Position numbers and translations under genes: made by a program. Under the pieces are notes generated by a model. It made no database searches and was not told the origin of the DNA. It saw only the letters and a program-made list of their open reading frames with translations. Shown one piece after another: positions 39,848 through 49,277 of a stretch of DNA of 64,000 nt (its first letter is position 1; every line of letters starts with the position of its first letter). The DNA comes from Bdellovibrionales bacterium (GTDB lineage: Bacteria; Bdellovibrionota; Bdellovibrionia; Bdellovibrionales; UBA1609). The stretch is from NCBI GenBank assembly GCA_965261545.1, contig CBDHDF010000002.1, positions 1 to 64,000 on the forward strand. Direction: 5' to 3'.

Positions 39848-40846
39848 ATGAAAATGGAGATGAATATGATTAATGTAGTTGCAGATTATTTATTTAATGG
39901 AGAAGAAATTCCAGCACTTATCTTTATAGTTGCTTGTTTATTTATGTTCGTTGCATTTTTTCTCGGATATTTTTTTAGACAACCGGATCATGCTAGATCA
40001 ACGATTATGACTTTAGGTATATTAGGTACTTTTGGTGGAATTTCCTTTGGACTCATGGGATTTAATTCAGATGATATTGAAGGAAGTATTCCAAGTCTTC
40101 TCAATGGGTTACAAACAGCTTTCTATTCCTCAATATTTGGAATGTTCCTGACTACCTTGATAAATATGATTTCATTTTTCCAAGAAAAATATATATCAAC
40201 TATAGGGGAAGTTTCTGATGAGGCATCTGATGTTATCATAAAGGCTTTGGAGAAAACTATGGAAGATTTTAATAAGAATTTAAAAGAACATTTTGGAGAA
40301 AATTTTAGTAGCCTTAATGATGCATGTTCAAAATTAATTCAATGGCAAGAAAATTATAAAGAACAAATTAAAAATGGCAATGATCAGTTAAATGAAATAT
40401 ATAAGGATTTGGTAAAAATGAGAGAATCATACTCCCTTATAGAAGAAGGAAATAAAAATACAATTGAAGTTCATAAAAAAATTAACAATTTAATTGAAAA
40501 ATATGAAAATACTATCAATGAATTATATCAAGGCTTTGGTGGATTTAATGAAATTGCAGAAAGAGGAGCGAAGATTCTCAATGTGATCAAGAAAGATTCT
40601 GAGGATGTTAAGAAAGAAATTAGTGGATTTAGTAATGAAATTCAGGGTAGTTTGCGTGGTCAGTCTCAAGCCTTAGAGGAGTTGACAAAAAATATTAAAG
40701 ACAACCTACCCGGTTCACTTGATAGCTTGAATCAAGCTTTAACAGATCAAGTAAAGCAATTCATAGCTGCATATAAAGAATATTTAAAGAATATACCTAA
40801 GGATGTCTTTAGAGACGATGAGGTTATAAAAAAGAAATCAGAATGA
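39848..40846 (+). CDS. zorA: ZorA-like MotA/ExbB membrane protein with coiled tail
   Basis: TLGILGTFGGI..GL, LLNGLQTAFYSSIFGM. Confidence 0.8.
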   Translation: MKMEMNMINVVADYLFNGEEIPALIFIVACLFMFVAFFLGYFFRQPDHARSTIMTLGILGTFGGISFGLMGFNSDDIEGSIPSLLNGLQTAFYSSIFGMFLTTLINMISFFQEKYISTIGEVSDEASDVIIKALEKTMEDFNKNLKEHFGENFSSLNDACSKLIQWQENYKEQIKNGNDQLNEIYKDLVKMRESYSLIEEGNKNTIEVHKKINNLIEKYENTINELYQGFGGFNEIAERGAKILNVIKKDSEDVKKEISGFSNEIQGSLRGQSQALEELTKNIKDNLPGSLDSLNQALTDQVKQFIAAYKEYLKNIPKDVFRDDEVIKKKSE

Positions 40847-40939
40847 AATCATATAATATTTTATTTTTACTTTAATAAATGCTAAACTATTTTAATTTAT
40901 TTCTAAATATTCAATGATATTGAATATGGAGTATTATTT

Positions 40940-41611
40940 GTGAAAATTAATAATAGTGAATGGATCAGTATCTCTGACCTTATGTCTGGATTAATGATGA
41001 TCTTTTTATTTGTGGCGATAGCTCTTCTTATACCTGAAAAGAATGAGAATAAGTATATTAAAGAAGCAATAGATAAATCTAAACATGATGTGAATAAACT
41101 AAACAGTGCTTTGGATTCAATCTTCAAAGAAGATTTTAGCAAATGGGGAGCCGTTCGTTTAAGAGATGGAACTGTCAGATTTCAAGAGCCTAAGATCATG
41201 TTTTCTCCAGGAAGTCACACTATATCTTATCGATTTAAGAAAATATTGAATGTTTTTTGTCCTCGCTATGTAAGGTTATTAAAAAATAATTTTAGAGATG
41301 AAATCCATGAAATAAGAGTTGTTGGACATTCATCAAGTGAATGGAAAACAAACAATCTTATGATAAGAAGTCTTAAAAACATTAAACTCTCTTCTGATAG
41401 GTCTTTGGATGTTTACTCTTTTTGCTATAAATCTATGAAGTCAAATCGTAAATGGTTTACAGAGAAGACGATATCAGTTGGTGCAGGATTTGTTCATAGA
41501 ATAAAAAATAATAGAAAAGAAATACGATGGATGTCTAGAAGAGTGGAATTCAGAGTTCAAATGAAGAGCGTTTCAAATTTAGAAGAATTATTGAGAGGAA
41601 AAAATTGGTAA
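40940..41611 (+). CDS. zorB: ZorB-like MotB/OmpA protein
   Basis: WISISDLMSGLMMIFLF, EIRVVGHSSSEW, LSSDRS, SRRVEF. Confidence 0.87.
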   Translation: MKINNSEWISISDLMSGLMMIFLFVAIALLIPEKNENKYIKEAIDKSKHDVNKLNSALDSIFKEDFSKWGAVRLRDGTVRFQEPKIMFSPGSHTISYRFKKILNVFCPRYVRLLKNNFRDEIHEIRVVGHSSSEWKTNNLMIRSLKNIKLSSDRSLDVYSFCYKSMKSNRKWFTEKTISVGAGFVHRIKNNRKEIRWMSRRVEFRVQMKSVSNLEELLRGKNW

Positions 41612-42519
41612 ACTTCACTAAATTTTATGCATTTAAAGAAATAAATAAAGAATTAACATCTATACTTGGTATTAAAAATAAGAAGGATGATTTTGAGATT
41701 TCTGAAATAGAAATAAATGAAGAGAATAAAGGGGACTTTATTTATTCTCCAAATGGAAAATTTATTTATAAAGAAATTCGACCAGGTGTAGTGGCTCGAA
41801 TGATTCTTTATATGTGTGATACGGATATTCAATGGATTAAGAGAAATTGTAAAGAAGATGAGTTTAAGCGCATTCAAAAAATATTTGAGAAACTTAACCA
41901 TGTATCACTTCCGTCTGATGAGTGTGATAATTCTCTTAATAGAGAATATATCTGCGAACATTTGCATAGATACCATTTCACCTATTGTCAAACATTGGAA
42001 AAACTCTTTAATGAGGGATTAAAGCATCGGTACTATGCTTCATGTCGGTGGGATGGAACTTTTTCTTATTCATTTATAGGTAAAAATATTCATTTATATA
42101 AAAATAAAAAACAAATACTATATCCTTGTCAACATTGTTTGAGGAATATAGACTTAGATGTAGATGTTGGAGTTAAATTGTGTAAAGAAATAATAGATCA
42201 AGTACTTAATCATGTCCCCAATAGTCAATTTCAATCAGAACATAGTATTAAATCAGAATTTGAACATATTCCTAATATTTACCCAGAAGATTGGAACGAA
42301 ATATCAAAAAGGTTAAAAGAGCGTAGAAATTATATATGCGAAGAATGCGAAAGAGATTGTTCCAATACAGGAGATGAATTGCATTGCCACCATATTAATA
42401 GACTTAAACATGATAATAGTTCATTCAATTTAAAGGTTCTTTGTAGAGAGTGCCATCAAAAAGAGCATCCTCATATGAGACAGTATACAAAGAATAATTA
42501 CATTGGGGCGAAGAGCTAA
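41605..42519 (+). CDS. HNH endonuclease, ZorE-like effector
   Basis: CEEC...LHCHHIN..KHDN...NLKVLCRECH; follows zorAB. Confidence 0.82.
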   Translation: MVNFTKFYAFKEINKELTSILGIKNKKDDFEISEIEINEENKGDFIYSPNGKFIYKEIRPGVVARMILYMCDTDIQWIKRNCKEDEFKRIQKIFEKLNHVSLPSDECDNSLNREYICEHLHRYHFTYCQTLEKLFNEGLKHRYYASCRWDGTFSYSFIGKNIHLYKNKKQILYPCQHCLRNIDLDVDVGVKLCKEIIDQVLNHVPNSQFQSEHSIKSEFEHIPNIYPEDWNEISKRLKERRNYICEECERDCSNTGDELHCHHINRLKHDNSSFNLKVLCRECHQKEHPHMRQYTKNNYIGAKS

Positions 42520-42896: not shown

Positions 42897-43172
42897 ATGA
42901 AAAATAAAAAAAAGATGGGGGACAGCAAAGCCTGCTCTAAGTGCTTCAGAGAGTTGCATTTAGATCAGTTTTATTCTAAAGGAAATCGTATAGATAGCTG
43001 TTGCAAAGCGTGTAAGAAAGCGCAAGTTCGGTCTACATATGTAGCCAGAAAACACCCCATAAATTTAAGAAAACTCCAAGAGTTTGTTACTATGGCCTGT
43101 GAGCTTGAAATGAAAAGGCTCGATCAGATTATAAACCAACTCGATGAAATCATCGAAAGGAGAACAAAATGA
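42897..43172 (+). CDS. Small zinc-finger protein coupled to serine recombinase
   Basis: CSKC...CCKAC; GGAGG upstream; ATGA overlap with recombinase. Confidence 0.6.
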   Translation: MKNKKKMGDSKACSKCFRELHLDQFYSKGNRIDSCCKACKKAQVRSTYVARKHPINLRKLQEFVTMACELEMKRLDQIINQLDEIIERRTK

Positions 43173-44960
43173 CAGCAGCCATTGATTACAATCATTTAAA
43201 AGATTTGCCCGACCATGAGAAGGCCAAAATTGCAGATATTCTTCTCAAAAGTTCAAGGGGGAATTTGGGAGGAAGGCGTCTCTTTCTAGCCAAGCAAAGC
43301 ACTCCTGAAAATGTTTGTGTGGAATTTTGGAGGGTGTCTTCGACCGACCAAAGAGATGGGTTTTCATTAAAAGCCCAAGAAGAGAAGGCCAAGGAGTACA
43401 GTGACCTTAACAGCCTTAAGAGTTCCAAAAATTGGTCGGTGAGTGAGTCTGCCTCCCAGGAGTTTGACCGAAAGAAATTTTTTGAAATGATTGATTATGT
43501 CACTGAAAACGGGATTAAGAATGTTGTCTTTGATAAAGTCGATCGAGCTTGTCGTGGTCTTAGGGCTGCGGTTGTGATTGAGGACCTTATCGAGTCAGGG
43601 GTTTGCTTTCATTTTGTCCGAGATAACCTTGTGGTGAACAAGGAGTCTGCCCCCAGTGAGAAGCTGCGGTTTTATCTCGGAGTTGTCTTGGCTAAGTGGT
43701 ATATTGATAACTTGAAGTCTGAGATCAAGAAAGGTCTTCATGGCCGCCTTGAAAATGGCTACTTCAATGCCAAAGCCCCTGTGGGCTATCGCAATGTTCG
43801 CCCTGAGTTTGGAAAAGCCAACCTTGAAGTACACCCAGAGATCGGCCCTTTTATTGCCGATTGCTTTGAACTCTACAAAACGGGCAATTATTCCAAAAAG
43901 GACTTGGAAAAAATTGGTTTGGAGAGAGGAATCAAGTGGATTGTGAAAAGAAGGGTCTTTGATAAAAACGGAGAAGCCCAGGTGGTGGTTCAAGAAAAGT
44001 TTGTCACCCATAAGGCTTTGGAGAGAGTGTTAAGTAACCCTGTCTATTGCCATTACAGACGAGTTTCCAAGAGTTCCCCAAATTATAAGAACTGTGGAGG
44101 CTCTAATGGTTTTACGGGGTCTAAGAAGGGGCTTACAGGCTCTGAGGGCTCTACAGACTCAAGAGGTAGAGGTTCTAGTGGCTCCAAGAGGAGCTGGAAA
44201 AGTCCTGGTGGCTTGAGTATGTGAAAAATGCCAAGTGGCCAGCTTTGATTAGCTTTGAGACCTTTATGGCTTGCCAGAAGATTCGTGGGATCAGAGCGCA
44301 GTCCACCAAGCTCAATTTGGCCGGCAGAGTCTCCAAGCCCCTCATGCAACTTATGAAGTGCGGGACCTGCGATCATCACATCACGGGGCAGTCTGTTAGC
44401 TGACAATTAAAATGCCCCACCGTCGCCAATGAAAAGTGGCCACTTTTCAGAGGAGGACCTATGGTGATTTTTGGCATTGTCAACCGAGACGCATATAATC
44501 AATTGATATTACTCATAAAAAGGCTCCGAGCTGATAAGAACTCCTTTTGGGTTCTTGTCGACCTGGAAAGGGGCTCCGTGTTGGAGAGTCCTTCCATGAC
44601 AGCCTATTCAGGTTCCATATTTGTCATTTGTAGACTGTTTCTGGATTTCAATGAGGTTAAATATATAGTCAAGAAAAGCCTGTTTAGGCTGTGCCCATTT
44701 TCTAAAGTATTTAAATTCCACAAGATTCCAACATTTGCCTCAATTTTCATGGAATTTCTTTCTGAAGACAGGCTTCCCTTAAAGCCGTCGCCAATTAAAA
44801 TGTCCCACTTTCAATATGGAGGTTGTCGCCAATGAAAAGTGACCAATCTTCAGGGAGTGTTCAAATACTAGACAATGAAGTCTCTTCTTCTGATATAGAT
44901 ACTAAGCTCACAGAGTCCCTCCCTCTTGCAACTCAAAAGGTTAGCAATGAGGAGGATCTT

Positions 44961-46427
44961 ATGATTAGTCAATACACTTTCGGCCGCATTCGTGACCTGA
45001 GTCACAGTGGTAAAAATAAGACAGAAATATCTCGTGAATTAGGGATCAATCGTAAGACGGTGCGCAAGTACTGTGAGTCCAACACCCCACCGAAGTACAA
45101 GGCGAGGTCCAAAAGAACTCGCCCAGATCCCCTTAATGGATATATGGATCGGGTGAAGTACTTTTTGAAGTTGAACCCAAGTAACACCGCCCGTGAAATA
45201 TATGAGCTATTAGTTGAGGAGGGTTATCGTGGGAGTGAGAGAACGGTTCAGAGAAGAGTTTGTGAGATTCTTGGTTCTCGCCCCAAGGAGCGTTTTTTCA
45301 GCCAAAGATATGATCCTGGAGAACAGGCTCAGTTTGATTTTAAGGAGAAGGTTGCTTTACCATTTGCCGATGGTGTTCAGATCGTTCATCTCCATTTTGG
45401 AACATTGCCTTGTAGTGGCACCTGTTGGGTTCGTGCCTACCCCTTTCTTGTCTATGAGTGTTTCATCGATGGGGTGCATGCTTTTTTTGAAAAGATAGGT
45501 GGGATGAGTGCGAACATCCGTATTGATAATTTATCTCCCTGTGTGAAGAAAGTTCTTAAAGGAAATCAGCGAATTTACACCCAATCTTTTGATCGAGCCA
45601 TCCAATACTATGGATTTAAGGTTCTTCCCTGCCGCGCAGGGAAGGGCTCTGACAAGGGAGATGTGGAGCGTGATATTCGAACCTTCAGTTCTCGGATAAA
45701 AAATATTGTTAGAAACAAAGGAATTGTTTTTAAAGACTGGGATCATTTGAATCAGTTTTTAGAGTCTTATATGGATCAGCATCAGAGTGACTCCACCAAA
45801 TCTCGCTTTGAGGAGGAGGCCAAAGTTCTTAAGCCTTTGCCTCCACGAGATGAAGATATTCTCTGTAAGGTGAATATTTGTCAAAGTAATGGTTATGGGA
45901 CTTTGAGAATAGGTAAAACCACATATTCCATACCTGATGAGGTGATCCAAGCTCCCTGTAAAACCGTACAGGGTCCCTATCATGTCACGATCTATCGTGC
46001 AGGAGGGAAGCAAGAAATTGTCGCTCGCCATCAAAGAAAACCTGATGGGGAGCATAGTCTTCTTCTTGAACATATCCTTCCTTCTTTAGTTCGTAAGCCG
46101 CAAGCCATGGTAAGATGGGCTCACCGATCCATTCTTTTTCCAACAAATGTGTTTGAAAATTTTTATCAATACCTCAAGCAACAAGATTCAAGCCGTGCCG
46201 AGCATGAATATTTAAGAGTTATCAACTTGATTCAGCATGTGAGTTGGCAGGACTTATCTACAGCCATGGAGCTTCAATTAGAAAGTCGTGAGATTTTCGA
46301 CTTTAAATCCATAAAAGATTTGCTCTTAGGCAATCCCACCAAAATTAATTTGAATGACCAACAAAAACCACTTCAACCTAGATTGTCTCAATATGACAGT
46401 CTTGTTCCAAACATAGGAGGTTCTTAA
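44961..46427 (+). CDS. istA: IS21 transposase IstA
   Basis: GAGGAGG RBS; EISRELGINRKTVRKY, PGEQAQFDF, IDNL, KGDVER. Confidence 0.93.
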   Translation: MISQYTFGRIRDLSHSGKNKTEISRELGINRKTVRKYCESNTPPKYKARSKRTRPDPLNGYMDRVKYFLKLNPSNTAREIYELLVEEGYRGSERTVQRRVCEILGSRPKERFFSQRYDPGEQAQFDFKEKVALPFADGVQIVHLHFGTLPCSGTCWVRAYPFLVYECFIDGVHAFFEKIGGMSANIRIDNLSPCVKKVLKGNQRIYTQSFDRAIQYYGFKVLPCRAGKGSDKGDVERDIRTFSSRIKNIVRNKGIVFKDWDHLNQFLESYMDQHQSDSTKSRFEEEAKVLKPLPPRDEDILCKVNICQSNGYGTLRIGKTTYSIPDEVIQAPCKTVQGPYHVTIYRAGGKQEIVARHQRKPDGEHSLLLEHILPSLVRKPQAMVRWAHRSILFPTNVFENFYQYLKQQDSSRAEHEYLRVINLIQHVSWQDLSTAMELQLESREIFDFKSIKDLLLGNPTKINLNDQQKPLQPRLSQYDSLVPNIGGS

Positions 46428-47209
46428 TGAATCACGAAGAACTTATAGGTTCTCTTAAAAAACTCCGACTTCCAGCGATGGCGGATGAATATGTTGCAAC
46501 GGCTAGAGTTGCCGAAAAAACAAAAAAGACGTATGAACAGTATTTAGGTATACTCGTTCAAAATGAGCTTGCTGACAAGCATTCCCAGAGAGTGAAAAGA
46601 TTGCTTAAGGGGGCCAAGCTTCCTCAACTTAAATCACTCCAAACTTATAACTTCCAGAAAAGAACGGGAGTGACAGCTCAGCAAATTAATTGGATGGCAG
46701 AGGGAGAGTGGGTCAGAAAAGCCTGTAATGTTGTGTTTTACGGAAGCTTTGGAATGGGGAAAAGTCATTTGGCCATGTCCCTAGTTCGTTCACTCTGTGA
46801 ACAAGGCTATCGATGTTTATGGGTCACCACTCATGAACTTATTGAAACAATGCGTGAAAGCAAGAAAGAACTCTCATTGAATGCTCTTTTTAAGAAATTA
46901 GACCGTTTTGATCTTATTGCTTGTGATGAACTTGGCTATACAGCTTCCTGCACAGAGGGGGCAGATCTTTTCTTTCAATTCATATCTCAGCGATATGAAA
47001 GGAAAAGTCTCATGATCACTACAAACTTAACTTACTCTGAATGGGATAAGGTGTTTCTTAACCCTATTACCACCGCTGCTGCTGTTGATCGAATTATTCA
47101 CAACTGTGAAACCCTCAACATTGAAGGAAAAGAAAGTTGGAGAACCGAATCCGCAAAAGCCAAGTCTAAACAGAGCAAAGAGGAAAGTTCAACCAAAGAA
47201 GTTCATTAG
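46427..47209 (+). CDS. istB: IS21 helper ATPase IstB
   Basis: GSFGMGKSHL, DELGY, RYERKS..ITTN, DRIIH. Confidence 0.95.
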   Translation: MNHEELIGSLKKLRLPAMADEYVATARVAEKTKKTYEQYLGILVQNELADKHSQRVKRLLKGAKLPQLKSLQTYNFQKRTGVTAQQINWMAEGEWVRKACNVVFYGSFGMGKSHLAMSLVRSLCEQGYRCLWVTTHELIETMRESKKELSLNALFKKLDRFDLIACDELGYTASCTEGADLFFQFISQRYERKSLMITTNLTYSEWDKVFLNPITTAAAVDRIIHNCETLNIEGKESWRTESAKAKSKQSKEESSTKEVH

Positions 47210-47261
47210 AGATCCCCACTTTTGGGGAAGGAACCCGCCAGTTATCCACAAAATTTATCCA

Positions 47262-47908
47262 ATCGAGTAGACAGTGGGAACTTCCCCCACTGCCCCTCAC
47301 AGACACGTACGTGACAGTCTCCCGTCATACGGCTCCTCTAATATTTGCGAGGTTCCACTATTGTAAACCATTTAAATGGACCACAGAGTGTCCGACTGGT
47401 TAGTGTTTCCTCACATATTAGGAGACCCCTTCGCTCCAGCTCCGTTACAGAACCTTCTTCACTACTACGAGTCTCTCTGCCCCTATCTGGTGTCATCGGT
47501 ATTTGCCCTTCGGTTTCCACCTTATAGCCGTTCCCTTAACATCCACCAGTAGGTTCCCCAGTTCCAACACGACGCCAAGTCTGTGCTCATGCCACCTTTA
47601 CGCCGGCTGCCACTCGGCCAGTAATCAGGTACCTTCCGAGTTTATCCCAAGGTACTACCGGGACCTTGGTTTTGACAGCAACTAACGCATTTTCGGCGCC
47701 TCATCGATGGTTCGCTTTCGCTCATCTTCACAGACTACACATGACCAGTTATTCTGGCCTTTTCCCTAACGCTCACCACCCAGGTCTTGCCCCCTGCGCA
47801 GCTTAGGGTTGTTTGTTCCCAATTCCTGTAAATCGAGAACGGTGGACCTACCACCATCATCATGTCAGCTTTCTATAGTCGTTACCTCCTATATTGTGCT
47901 GGGCACAC
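47262..47908 (-). ncRNA. ORF-less group II intron (IIB-like), 647 nt
   Basis: 5' GUGUGCCC; DV GAGCCGUAUGACGGGAGACUGUCACGUAC; DVI ending CUACUCGAU; closed short DIV; EBS1/EBS2 pair with the flanking exon. Confidence 0.9.
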
Positions 47909-48919
47909 CAGCAGCACTGCGTTGCTAGACATCGGGGTCACAGCCGCAGTGTCGCCATGGATAAATTTATGGATAACTGGCTTTTACCGTACTATTTGCT
48001 CGTCACTCTCGCGGAGCTTTAGACATTAGCTGCGCCAAGGAATCCTGAAAAATACTCCATTTACCTCTGCCATAGGGCTGAAGGATGCATTTGGGGTCAT
48101 GCCAAAAGTGGTGGGCAGAAAATCATTCCTCAGAATCTTGTGGCATAGTCCGAGTTAAATGATGAGCAAAATAAAGACACTTGACTAAACTCTGAACGAA
48201 GAATAACTAAATCAGTACATCATCAACTGGCCGTTTTTCATTGGCGACGGCTTCTAAAAATGGCCAATTTTAATTGGCGCCTAACACAGTCTAAGAAAAA
48301 AGCATCAGGCAAGATTTATACCTATTATCATTGTGCCAATAAGAGGTGTGAGCAAAATGGTGTGTACACGGAGCAAAGAAGACTCATTGCGCAGTTCTCG
48401 GCGGCCTTTGAGCCCTTTCAGCGTTTTACTCCAAAGGCTACGGCTGCCTTTATAAAAATGGTGCAAGGTCGTATCAGCCAACTGAGTGGGCACTCCACAG
48501 AAAAGGTCAACCAACTTCGAGAAAAGAAAACCCAGCTTCAAGATCGTATGGCACAGATTCATGATCTTTATGAAAAGGGCTTATTGAGCCACGAGGAAGC
48601 CTTGGAGTTTCAGGCCATAAAAGAACGGGAGCTTGAAAAAATTGGAAAAGATATAATGCTTCACGGTATTTCTGTAACGCAAGGTGGAGAAAGGAGTTGG
48701 GGAGGCGTATCAGAAGTTCAAGGGGATTGGCGGATTGCGTTAGATCTCATAGAACTTTTGAAAACATCTCATGATTTCATGCAGTTAGATGGCTTTGAGG
48801 GCCAAAAAGCACGGATCTATAGATCCATGCTCTCGAACCCGACTTTAAAAGATGGAACTATTGAATATCGCTATGCAAAATGGTTTGCGGACCTCCTGTT
48901 ATTGACAGGGGGTCGCAAC

Positions 48920-49277
48920 TGGTGGAGGTGGTGGGAATTGAACCCACGTCCATAAGTCTTTCACATTAAGGCAAAGCTACATGCTTAGTCTATGTTTTAT
49001 AGGTGACTTATAGACCTCCACAGACAAAGTGCTATAAGTCCCTCCTCCAGATGATTTAAGTCGCAACTCCTGGAGAAACCAAATTTGCGACCGAGGTAGT
49101 TTGAGTGACATCTCTCCATACCCACTACCTTAGTGCGAAGAGATGTAGCTGAACCGATTAGGCAGCTAGTGCATAGTTGCTATTATCAACTATAGTTTTA
49201 CCCGTTTTGAAGAGGACCTCGGGTGCCTCTGCATGCTCCTTAAGCTTCAATACCCATGTCGAATCCGTGTCACCCCC
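48920..49277 (-). ncRNA. ssrA: tmRNA
   Basis: GGGGGUG/CACCUCC-ACCA acceptor stem with G3.U70, GGAUUCGAC, T arm, tag frame DNSNYALAA* at 49187-49158. Confidence 0.97.

Follow-up and report, generated by a model that had tools for sequence, protein, structure and literature searches.

A non-autonomous, class D-like group II intron at guide-matched sites in two unrelated IS families of a Bdellovibrionales bacterium

Introduction

How does a group II intron that encodes no protein come to lie, exactly, within a DnaA box on an insertion sequence (IS)? The question is raised by a 647-nt intron in a 64,000-nt stretch of a Bdellovibrionales genome (GCA_965261545.1, contig CBDHDF010000002.1, positions 1–64,000; hereafter the window). 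The original prediction, made from the letters of this stretch, was that the intron is mobilised in trans, hitch-hikes on its host IS and targets a replication-linked hairpin. Here we examine the anatomy of the intron, its guide sequences and its other copies in the genome, and find that guide pairing probably accounts for where it lies.

Results

A complete ORF-less group IIB intron in an IS21 element

We find that the minus strand at 47262–47908 holds a complete ORF-less group II intron of 647 nt (family A), as predicted. Both of its ends, GUGUG...CUCGAU reading from 47908 to 47262, are intact; the RNA matches Rfam RF01999 (group-II-D1D4-2) with 93.4 bits and RF00029 (Intron_gpII) with 43.6 bits, at a cut-off of 40 bits, and the whole intron folds with a z of −5.3. 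The group II hallmarks are present, namely 5′ GUGYG, 3′ AY, the domain V catalytic triad and the bulged A of domain VI. The Rfam alignment and a position check place domains V and VI at 47262–47335 (minus), with an AGC triad and the bulged A at 47268, seven from the end. Domain IV, at about 47336–47429 (minus), is a closed stem-loop of ~95 nt with no ORF (fold z −3.6), and a blastx comparison with seven class D-like reverse transcriptase (RT) sequences finds no RT trace in it at E ≤ 10, bearing out the claim of a closed stem without an RT remnant. The subgroup IIB pairings EBS1, EBS2, EBS3 and delta–delta′ can all be assigned, and we describe the RNA as a class D-like one of subgroup IIB. Group IIC identity was considered and is ruled out by the presence of EBS2 and by an insertion at a hairpin-free site.

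The host is an IS21-family element on the plus strand (44394–48286; istA 44823–46427, istB 46427–47209; NCBIfam NF033546 and NF038214), again as predicted. Its target duplication is 5 bp long (CAGTC), and the gene that it interrupts encodes a serine recombinase (Pfam Resolvase). The intron lies between istB and the IS21 right end, antisense to istAB; a promoter scan upstream of it returns three weak sites against 1.3 in shuffles, and no clear promoter. It interrupts an IS-borne hairpin (47237–47981) that measures about 100 bp when empty and, as the single-stranded DNA of an empty copy, folds with a z of −9.7. This hairpin carries a perfect DnaA box, TTATCCACA, at 47242–47250 and a second one that the intron splits into 47255–47261 and 47909–47910.

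The genome holds 31 full-length empty IS21 copies among 98 pieces, and in 56 empty copies of the window hairpin TTATCCACA runs across the junction (TTATCCA/CA). The exact 647-nt skip from 47261 to 47909 also appears in contigs of four of four public runs (three samples, three studies), two of which may be the source sample; at low depth, runs X5 and X6 contain the empty IS end with the intron body uncovered. The predicted junction is therefore correct: removing the intron restores the box, and the insertion is precise and without target duplication, so that "precisely homed" is an apt description.

The split recombinase gene (43169–48955) ends at the 3′ end of a tmRNA (48920–49277), and the site occurs once more, free of the IS, at C11:456245–456747; the locus is probably a tmRNA-integrated element. 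Elsewhere in the window, at 39848–42519, a MotA/ExbB-like coiled-coil gene, an OmpA-domain gene (a weak Pfam match) and an HNH-like gene stand in a row, a layout that we take to recall a Zorya-type defence locus.

Guide sequences and their pairings

EBS1, CGGUAGU, lies in the ID3 loop (47654–47660, minus), where it is a joint best hexamer for position −1; the homologous loop is present in the aligned introns. Its first six bases (47660–47655) pair with CUGCUG, including two G–U pairs, exactly as claimed, and the pairing is extendable to 7 bp. Delta and delta′ are C47661 and G47700 (minus), a C–G pair in family A and G–C in a sister family (family B, below). EBS3 is A47598 (minus), which pairs with the +1 T of the 3′ exon: +1 is T at six of six family-A 3′ ends, and an alignment read by eye gives EBS3/+1 covariation of A/T, U/A and G/C. 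The 5′ exon (47909–47923, minus) supplies IBS1 at 47909–47915 and IBS2 at 47918–47923.

The EBS2 assignment has to be revised. GCUGCG at 47802–47797, the hexamer first proposed, is part of the conserved IC1 stem (47775–47802, minus), in which GCUGC (47802–47798) pairs with GUGGU (47779–47775); this helix is paired in 50 of 50 cells across 10 of 10 aligned introns, with one pair varying as U–G, U–A or G–C, and GCUGC is near-invariant among them despite their differing targets. The proposed position does not track the introns' own exons (p 0.55, 11 introns). We place EBS2 instead at UGCGUU (47684–47689, minus), in the loop directly after CGAAA. Across an alignment of the window intron, family B and nine plasmid introns, the loop after CGAAA tracks each intron's own exon with a permutation p of 0.0002 (11 introns), an optimistic value because four of the 11 share one EBS2 and target type, and the summed score against own exons is 47.5 for this loop and 37.5 for the GCUGC position. 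UGCGUU (47689–47684) also ranks first among the hexamers of intron positions 1–340, with a mean of 5.9/6 over four distinct exons; the hexamer first proposed comes second in this single-intron scan (5.1/6), which explains the misassignment. In IIB1 and IIB2 introns EBS2 is described as lying in an internal loop of subdomain ID, three bases past a helix (PMC8643678), and the placement of UGCGUU agrees with that description. The homologous EBS2 of family B pairs only 3.5/5 and falls outside the top six of an unbiased hexamer scan.

Near-identical copies at sites that match the guides

Family A has seven intact 5′ junctions in the genome. Four lie in the window-type IS21 hairpin (the window, C11:1056592, C10:508798 and C2:463512). 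One lies in the hairpin arm of a second IS21 family, where the 9-mer at the junction differs from the DnaA box in two positions and the 3′ side is inferred from 18 empty copies. The remaining two, C4:188023 and C2:910162, lie in terminal inverted repeats of the IS1634 type (NF033559), of which 74 are empty. An orphan 3′ junction at C11:811574 sits in a box-free repeated gene; of the seven paralogues listed for this gene, two (C2:613806 and C2:610608) contain a sequence that matches EBS1 in full.

All occupied sites match EBS1 and EBS3, and the EBS2 register is canonical in the two IS21 hairpins and shifted by one base in the IS1634 repeats. The target motif has 148 matches in the genome, in the first IS21 family (56), the second (18) and the IS1634 repeats (74), and none elsewhere; since the motif was derived from occupied sites, this shows only that other perfect sites are absent. 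Copies at different sites are 99.4–100% identical, with 0–4 changes between them, so that family A, with no ORF in domain IV and several near-identical copies at EBS-matching sites, fits, as predicted, the definition of a non-autonomous intron and has been copied recently.

Several copies are cut by an IS or by another intron: the C10:508798 copy carries, in antisense, an RT intron of another class, itself intact (C10:509088–511248). The C2:463512 copy has a foreign 3′ flank and is a family A/B recombinant. This chimera (C2:463512–464144) has an A-type 5′ flank and joins family-A domain I to family-B domains II–VI at a short shared stretch; it looks like a rearrangement between two introns.

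Family B itself is 626 nt long and 71% identical to family A (C2:405672–406297 and 16 other 5′ ends), occurs as head-to-tail tandem copies and keeps an RT-start stub in domain IV. Its main target has 59 empty sites, one copy lies inside IS1634, and, as in family A, its copies are nearly identical to one another. EBS2, the triad and the Rfam family rule out group IIC for it as well. The genome has 23 RF01999 matches, every one of them ORF-less: seven belong to family A and 16 to family B; the same Rfam family covers family A, family B and the plasmid relatives.

Beyond this genome, we find no close relatives of the window intron among 60 related genomes, and eight of 400 genomes of the phylum give only short or 68–93% partial matches. 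A phage search yields one 46-nt match, and a domain VI pattern search one match each among genome contigs and among metagenome contigs, both judged to be chance.

No intact RT gene of the same class in the assembly

The assembly (96.8% complete, 11 contigs, many contig ends in repeats) contains no intact same-class RT gene. A class D-like RT intron, family C, is present only as IS-cut pieces, one of them frameshifted, and its RNA is about 65% identical to the window intron in domains I–III, further away than some plasmid introns. Full-length RT frames fall into three families, with RNA of the Rfam D1-D4-6 type at the loci scanned. The closest RT-encoding relatives are plasmid introns with 69.5–74% identity in domains I–III and proteins of 415–425 aa; these proteins, the family C protein and a 419-aa S. 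meliloti protein form one clade (support 100/98). We presume that these RTs merit the class D label and carry its C-terminal LFxHW signature, an assignment that rests on likeness to the 419-aa S. meliloti protein and its relatives, in a tree that holds no labelled class D or RmInt reference. RmInt1-type class D proteins are described as having 419 aa (PMC4615759), and the class definitions follow PMC3552965, as far as these sources bear on them.

From these observations we infer that family A is mobilised in trans, and the simplest reading is that the helper was family C in the past or a relative outside the assembly; given the 65% RNA identity, family C is a putative helper. One family C intron (C11:870416–874105) lies in istB of the same IS21, at the site that corresponds to window position 46780, and is cut by a 1925-bp element present in seven copies.

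DnaA boxes and the IS hairpin

The genome contains 298 perfect TTATCCACA boxes against 48 expected from composition, and 200 permuted 9-mers have a median of 35 and a maximum of 167. Two perfect boxes sit in and just after dnaA, which makes the consensus plausible for this host, and 240 of the 298 lie in IS-borne contexts repeated three or more times; these could titrate or recruit DnaA and may deserve a separate look. The right end of IS1634 has a single perfect box, in 38 copies. Variants of the ~100-bp box-bearing hairpin stand 3′ of the transposase genes in four IS types (two IS21 families, an ISL3 and an IS110), at 109 loci including fragments (e.g., C2:205763, C2:460115 and C7:186329). 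Three empty copies have no Rfam match at E ≤ 1, and the hairpin has no plasmid match; a box-array pattern is found in 42 viral contigs and three of 300 genomes of the phylum, and the matches listed mostly resemble origin-type box arrays, not the IS hairpin. A literature search, with subscription journals largely outside its range, returned neither a description of this hairpin nor a paper that connects DnaA boxes with the insertion of group II introns. The ends of Tn5 are known to contain a DnaA site (PMC3347997).

Discussion

We consider it probable that family A is a non-autonomous class D-like IIB intron that retrohomes by EBS pairing, with an RT supplied in trans, into the targets offered by two unrelated IS types. 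The intron is predicted to splice, and the excised lariat would reverse-splice into DNA that pairs with EBS1 CGGUAGU, EBS2 UGCGUU and EBS3 A. An RT/maturase from elsewhere, most likely that of family C before ISs broke its copies or of a copy outside the assembly, would then copy the inserted intron in trans. A single guide fits, by chance, the 3′ hairpins of two IS21 families and both IS1634 terminal repeats, and at least one ectopic gene site as well. Class D introns that lack the endonuclease (En-minus) use replication-fork priming, and family A may do the same; GC skew is scrambled along the contigs and gives no fork direction against which a lagging-strand bias could be read.

The counterpoint to guide pairing as the explanation is that five of the seven intact 5′ junctions lie in DnaA-box hairpins, and it could be that EBS pairing fixes the junction while insertion is made easier by single strands laid bare at these IS ends, either by bound DnaA or by extrusion of the hairpin. 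The high stability of the hairpin as single-stranded DNA, a one-mismatch box 60 bp from the C2:910162 site, the perfect box in the IS1634 right end and the published DnaA site in Tn5 ends all fit such assistance. We nevertheless regard it as improbable. The four junctions that split a perfect box are all at the same IS21 site and the other distinct sites do not split one, two of the seven being in IS1634 repeats and one at a two-mismatch 9-mer; of all 298 boxes, family A occupies only the one beside an IBS match. The C4:188023 insertion lacks both a box-like 9-mer, over a range of 150 bp, and a stable hairpin (−6.0 versus −5.5 kcal/mol in shuffles). Hairpins are occupied in 5/79 cases and IS1634 repeats in 2/76 (Fisher p 0.44), ISL3 and IS110 hairpins that carry boxes but mismatch IBS2 in 0/26, and at each of eight distinct family-B sites the upstream exon is free of boxes over 150 bp. 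The target, moreover, lies inside an arm of the hairpin that is itself paired, and this pairing would be in competition with that of the EBSs. Only three box bases (two of IBS1, plus IBS3) fall in the EBS-paired region, and the split box is thus a by-product, an overlap that looks incidental. A DnaA box is not required for insertion, and a modest preference is compatible with these small numbers; the box preference among other copies, on which the original prediction staked its hairpin targeting, is contradicted by the IS1634-repeat sites. The DnaA link that made the window intron look special fails as a targeting rule. Nor do the data bear out hitch-hiking on the IS, in which a single homing into IS21 would be followed by transposition of the IS and intron as a unit. 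In favour of such a unit, the window IS21 is intact with its target duplication, and neither istAB nor the terminal repeats are touched by the intron; the other two IS21 copies with both intron junctions are IS fragments whose transposition history is unreadable. Those three copies show three different variant sets (IS haplotypes) beside the intron, the C10 copy has an intron variant in common with the IS1634 copy and not with the other IS21 copies, and transposition of IS21 cannot produce the copies in IS1634 repeats. The variants of IS and intron therefore suggest separate homing events rather than co-transposition, with the qualification that the IS haplotypes are mosaic and gene conversion could mimic separate homing. 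Hitch-hiking is unlikely as the main route, and we give it slightly less weight still than assistance by DnaA or the hairpin.

Two other readings concern the helper rather than the target. In one, family A was mobile while its cognate RT existed and is now stranded and immobile, which is compatible with EBS-guided homing in the past. We hold this to be possible, somewhat short of an even chance: class D-like RTs survive only as broken copies, ISs or introns interrupt several of the family-A copies and one copy has recombined with family B, but the near-identity of the copies and their intact catalytic domains speak for recent activity, and the incompleteness of the assembly, with its many contig ends in repeats, leaves room for a helper gene outside it. 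In the other, the two ORF-less class D-like families (seven copies of A, 16–17 of B), having spread recently in a genome that has no intact RT of their class, would owe their movement to a protein that is distant or of another class, for example one from the three intact D1-D4-6 RT families, possibly with box-bearing IS ends aiding access. We regard this as improbable; cross-class mobilisation, if true, would represent a move, within bacteria, in the direction of a general splicing factor.

Guide-directed homing with an RT in trans would place family A among known systems. RmInt2 of Sinorhizobium meliloti is described as targeting both inverted repeats of ISRm17, with a one-base EBS2 shift, tolerance of an EBS2 mismatch and head-to-tail copies (PMC4615759, PMC5894124). 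As far as those accounts go, RmInt1 and RmInt2 (class D, IIB3) resemble family A in homing into IS elements and, putatively, in their En-minus class RNA type, and RmInt2 further in the EBS2 shift and, for family B, the head-to-tail copies; the window intron differs in having no ORF and in a guide that fits two unrelated IS families and an ectopic site. The ORF-less TeI3 introns of Thermosynechococcus elongatus, of type IIB1 (PMC8643678), are reported to be mobilised in trans into IS elements and other introns (PMC2882425); as described there, remnants of the ORF persist in them and their drivers are intact and close relatives, whereas family A shows no ORF trace and has no intact driver of its class in the assembly. 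Group IIC introns are described as lacking EBS2–IBS2 and recognising stem-loops (PMC8643678), and the window insertion recalls that habit in lying at a hairpin in the DNA of a mobile element; set against this description, the window intron has an EBS2, an AGC triad and a length of 647 nt, and family A inserts within the stem arm and also where no hairpin exists. Two plasmids, CP157007.1 (Methylomonas) and NZ_AP017978.1 (Neochlamydia), carry ORF-less relatives that belong to the same Rfam family at a similar length and about 71% identity in domains I–III, but their EBSs and targets differ.

With RmInt2 in ISRm17, TeI3 and these plasmid relatives as precedents, introns of this hitch-hiking kind are already known, and family A, on present evidence, illustrates their behaviour cleanly, as a streamlined intron that makes its home on ISs. 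Particular to it are the closed domain IV, one guide for two unrelated IS families and the lack of an intact same-class RT in the assembly. At 647 nt it is a compact IIB ribozyme, its natural targets are well defined and, because its helper is missing or distant, it provides a natural test of how far RT–intron specificity can relax. Among the plasmid introns we observe three unannotated ORF-less introns in tandem in NZ_AP017978.1 (2434–4367), with differing EBS1 loops, and a further unannotated ORF-less intron of the same Rfam family in CP157007.1 (2440–3097). Several plasmid relatives (L023, L041, L042 and L045) are inserted immediately behind the codons for YADD in other RT genes and have the EBS2 GCGUA in common.
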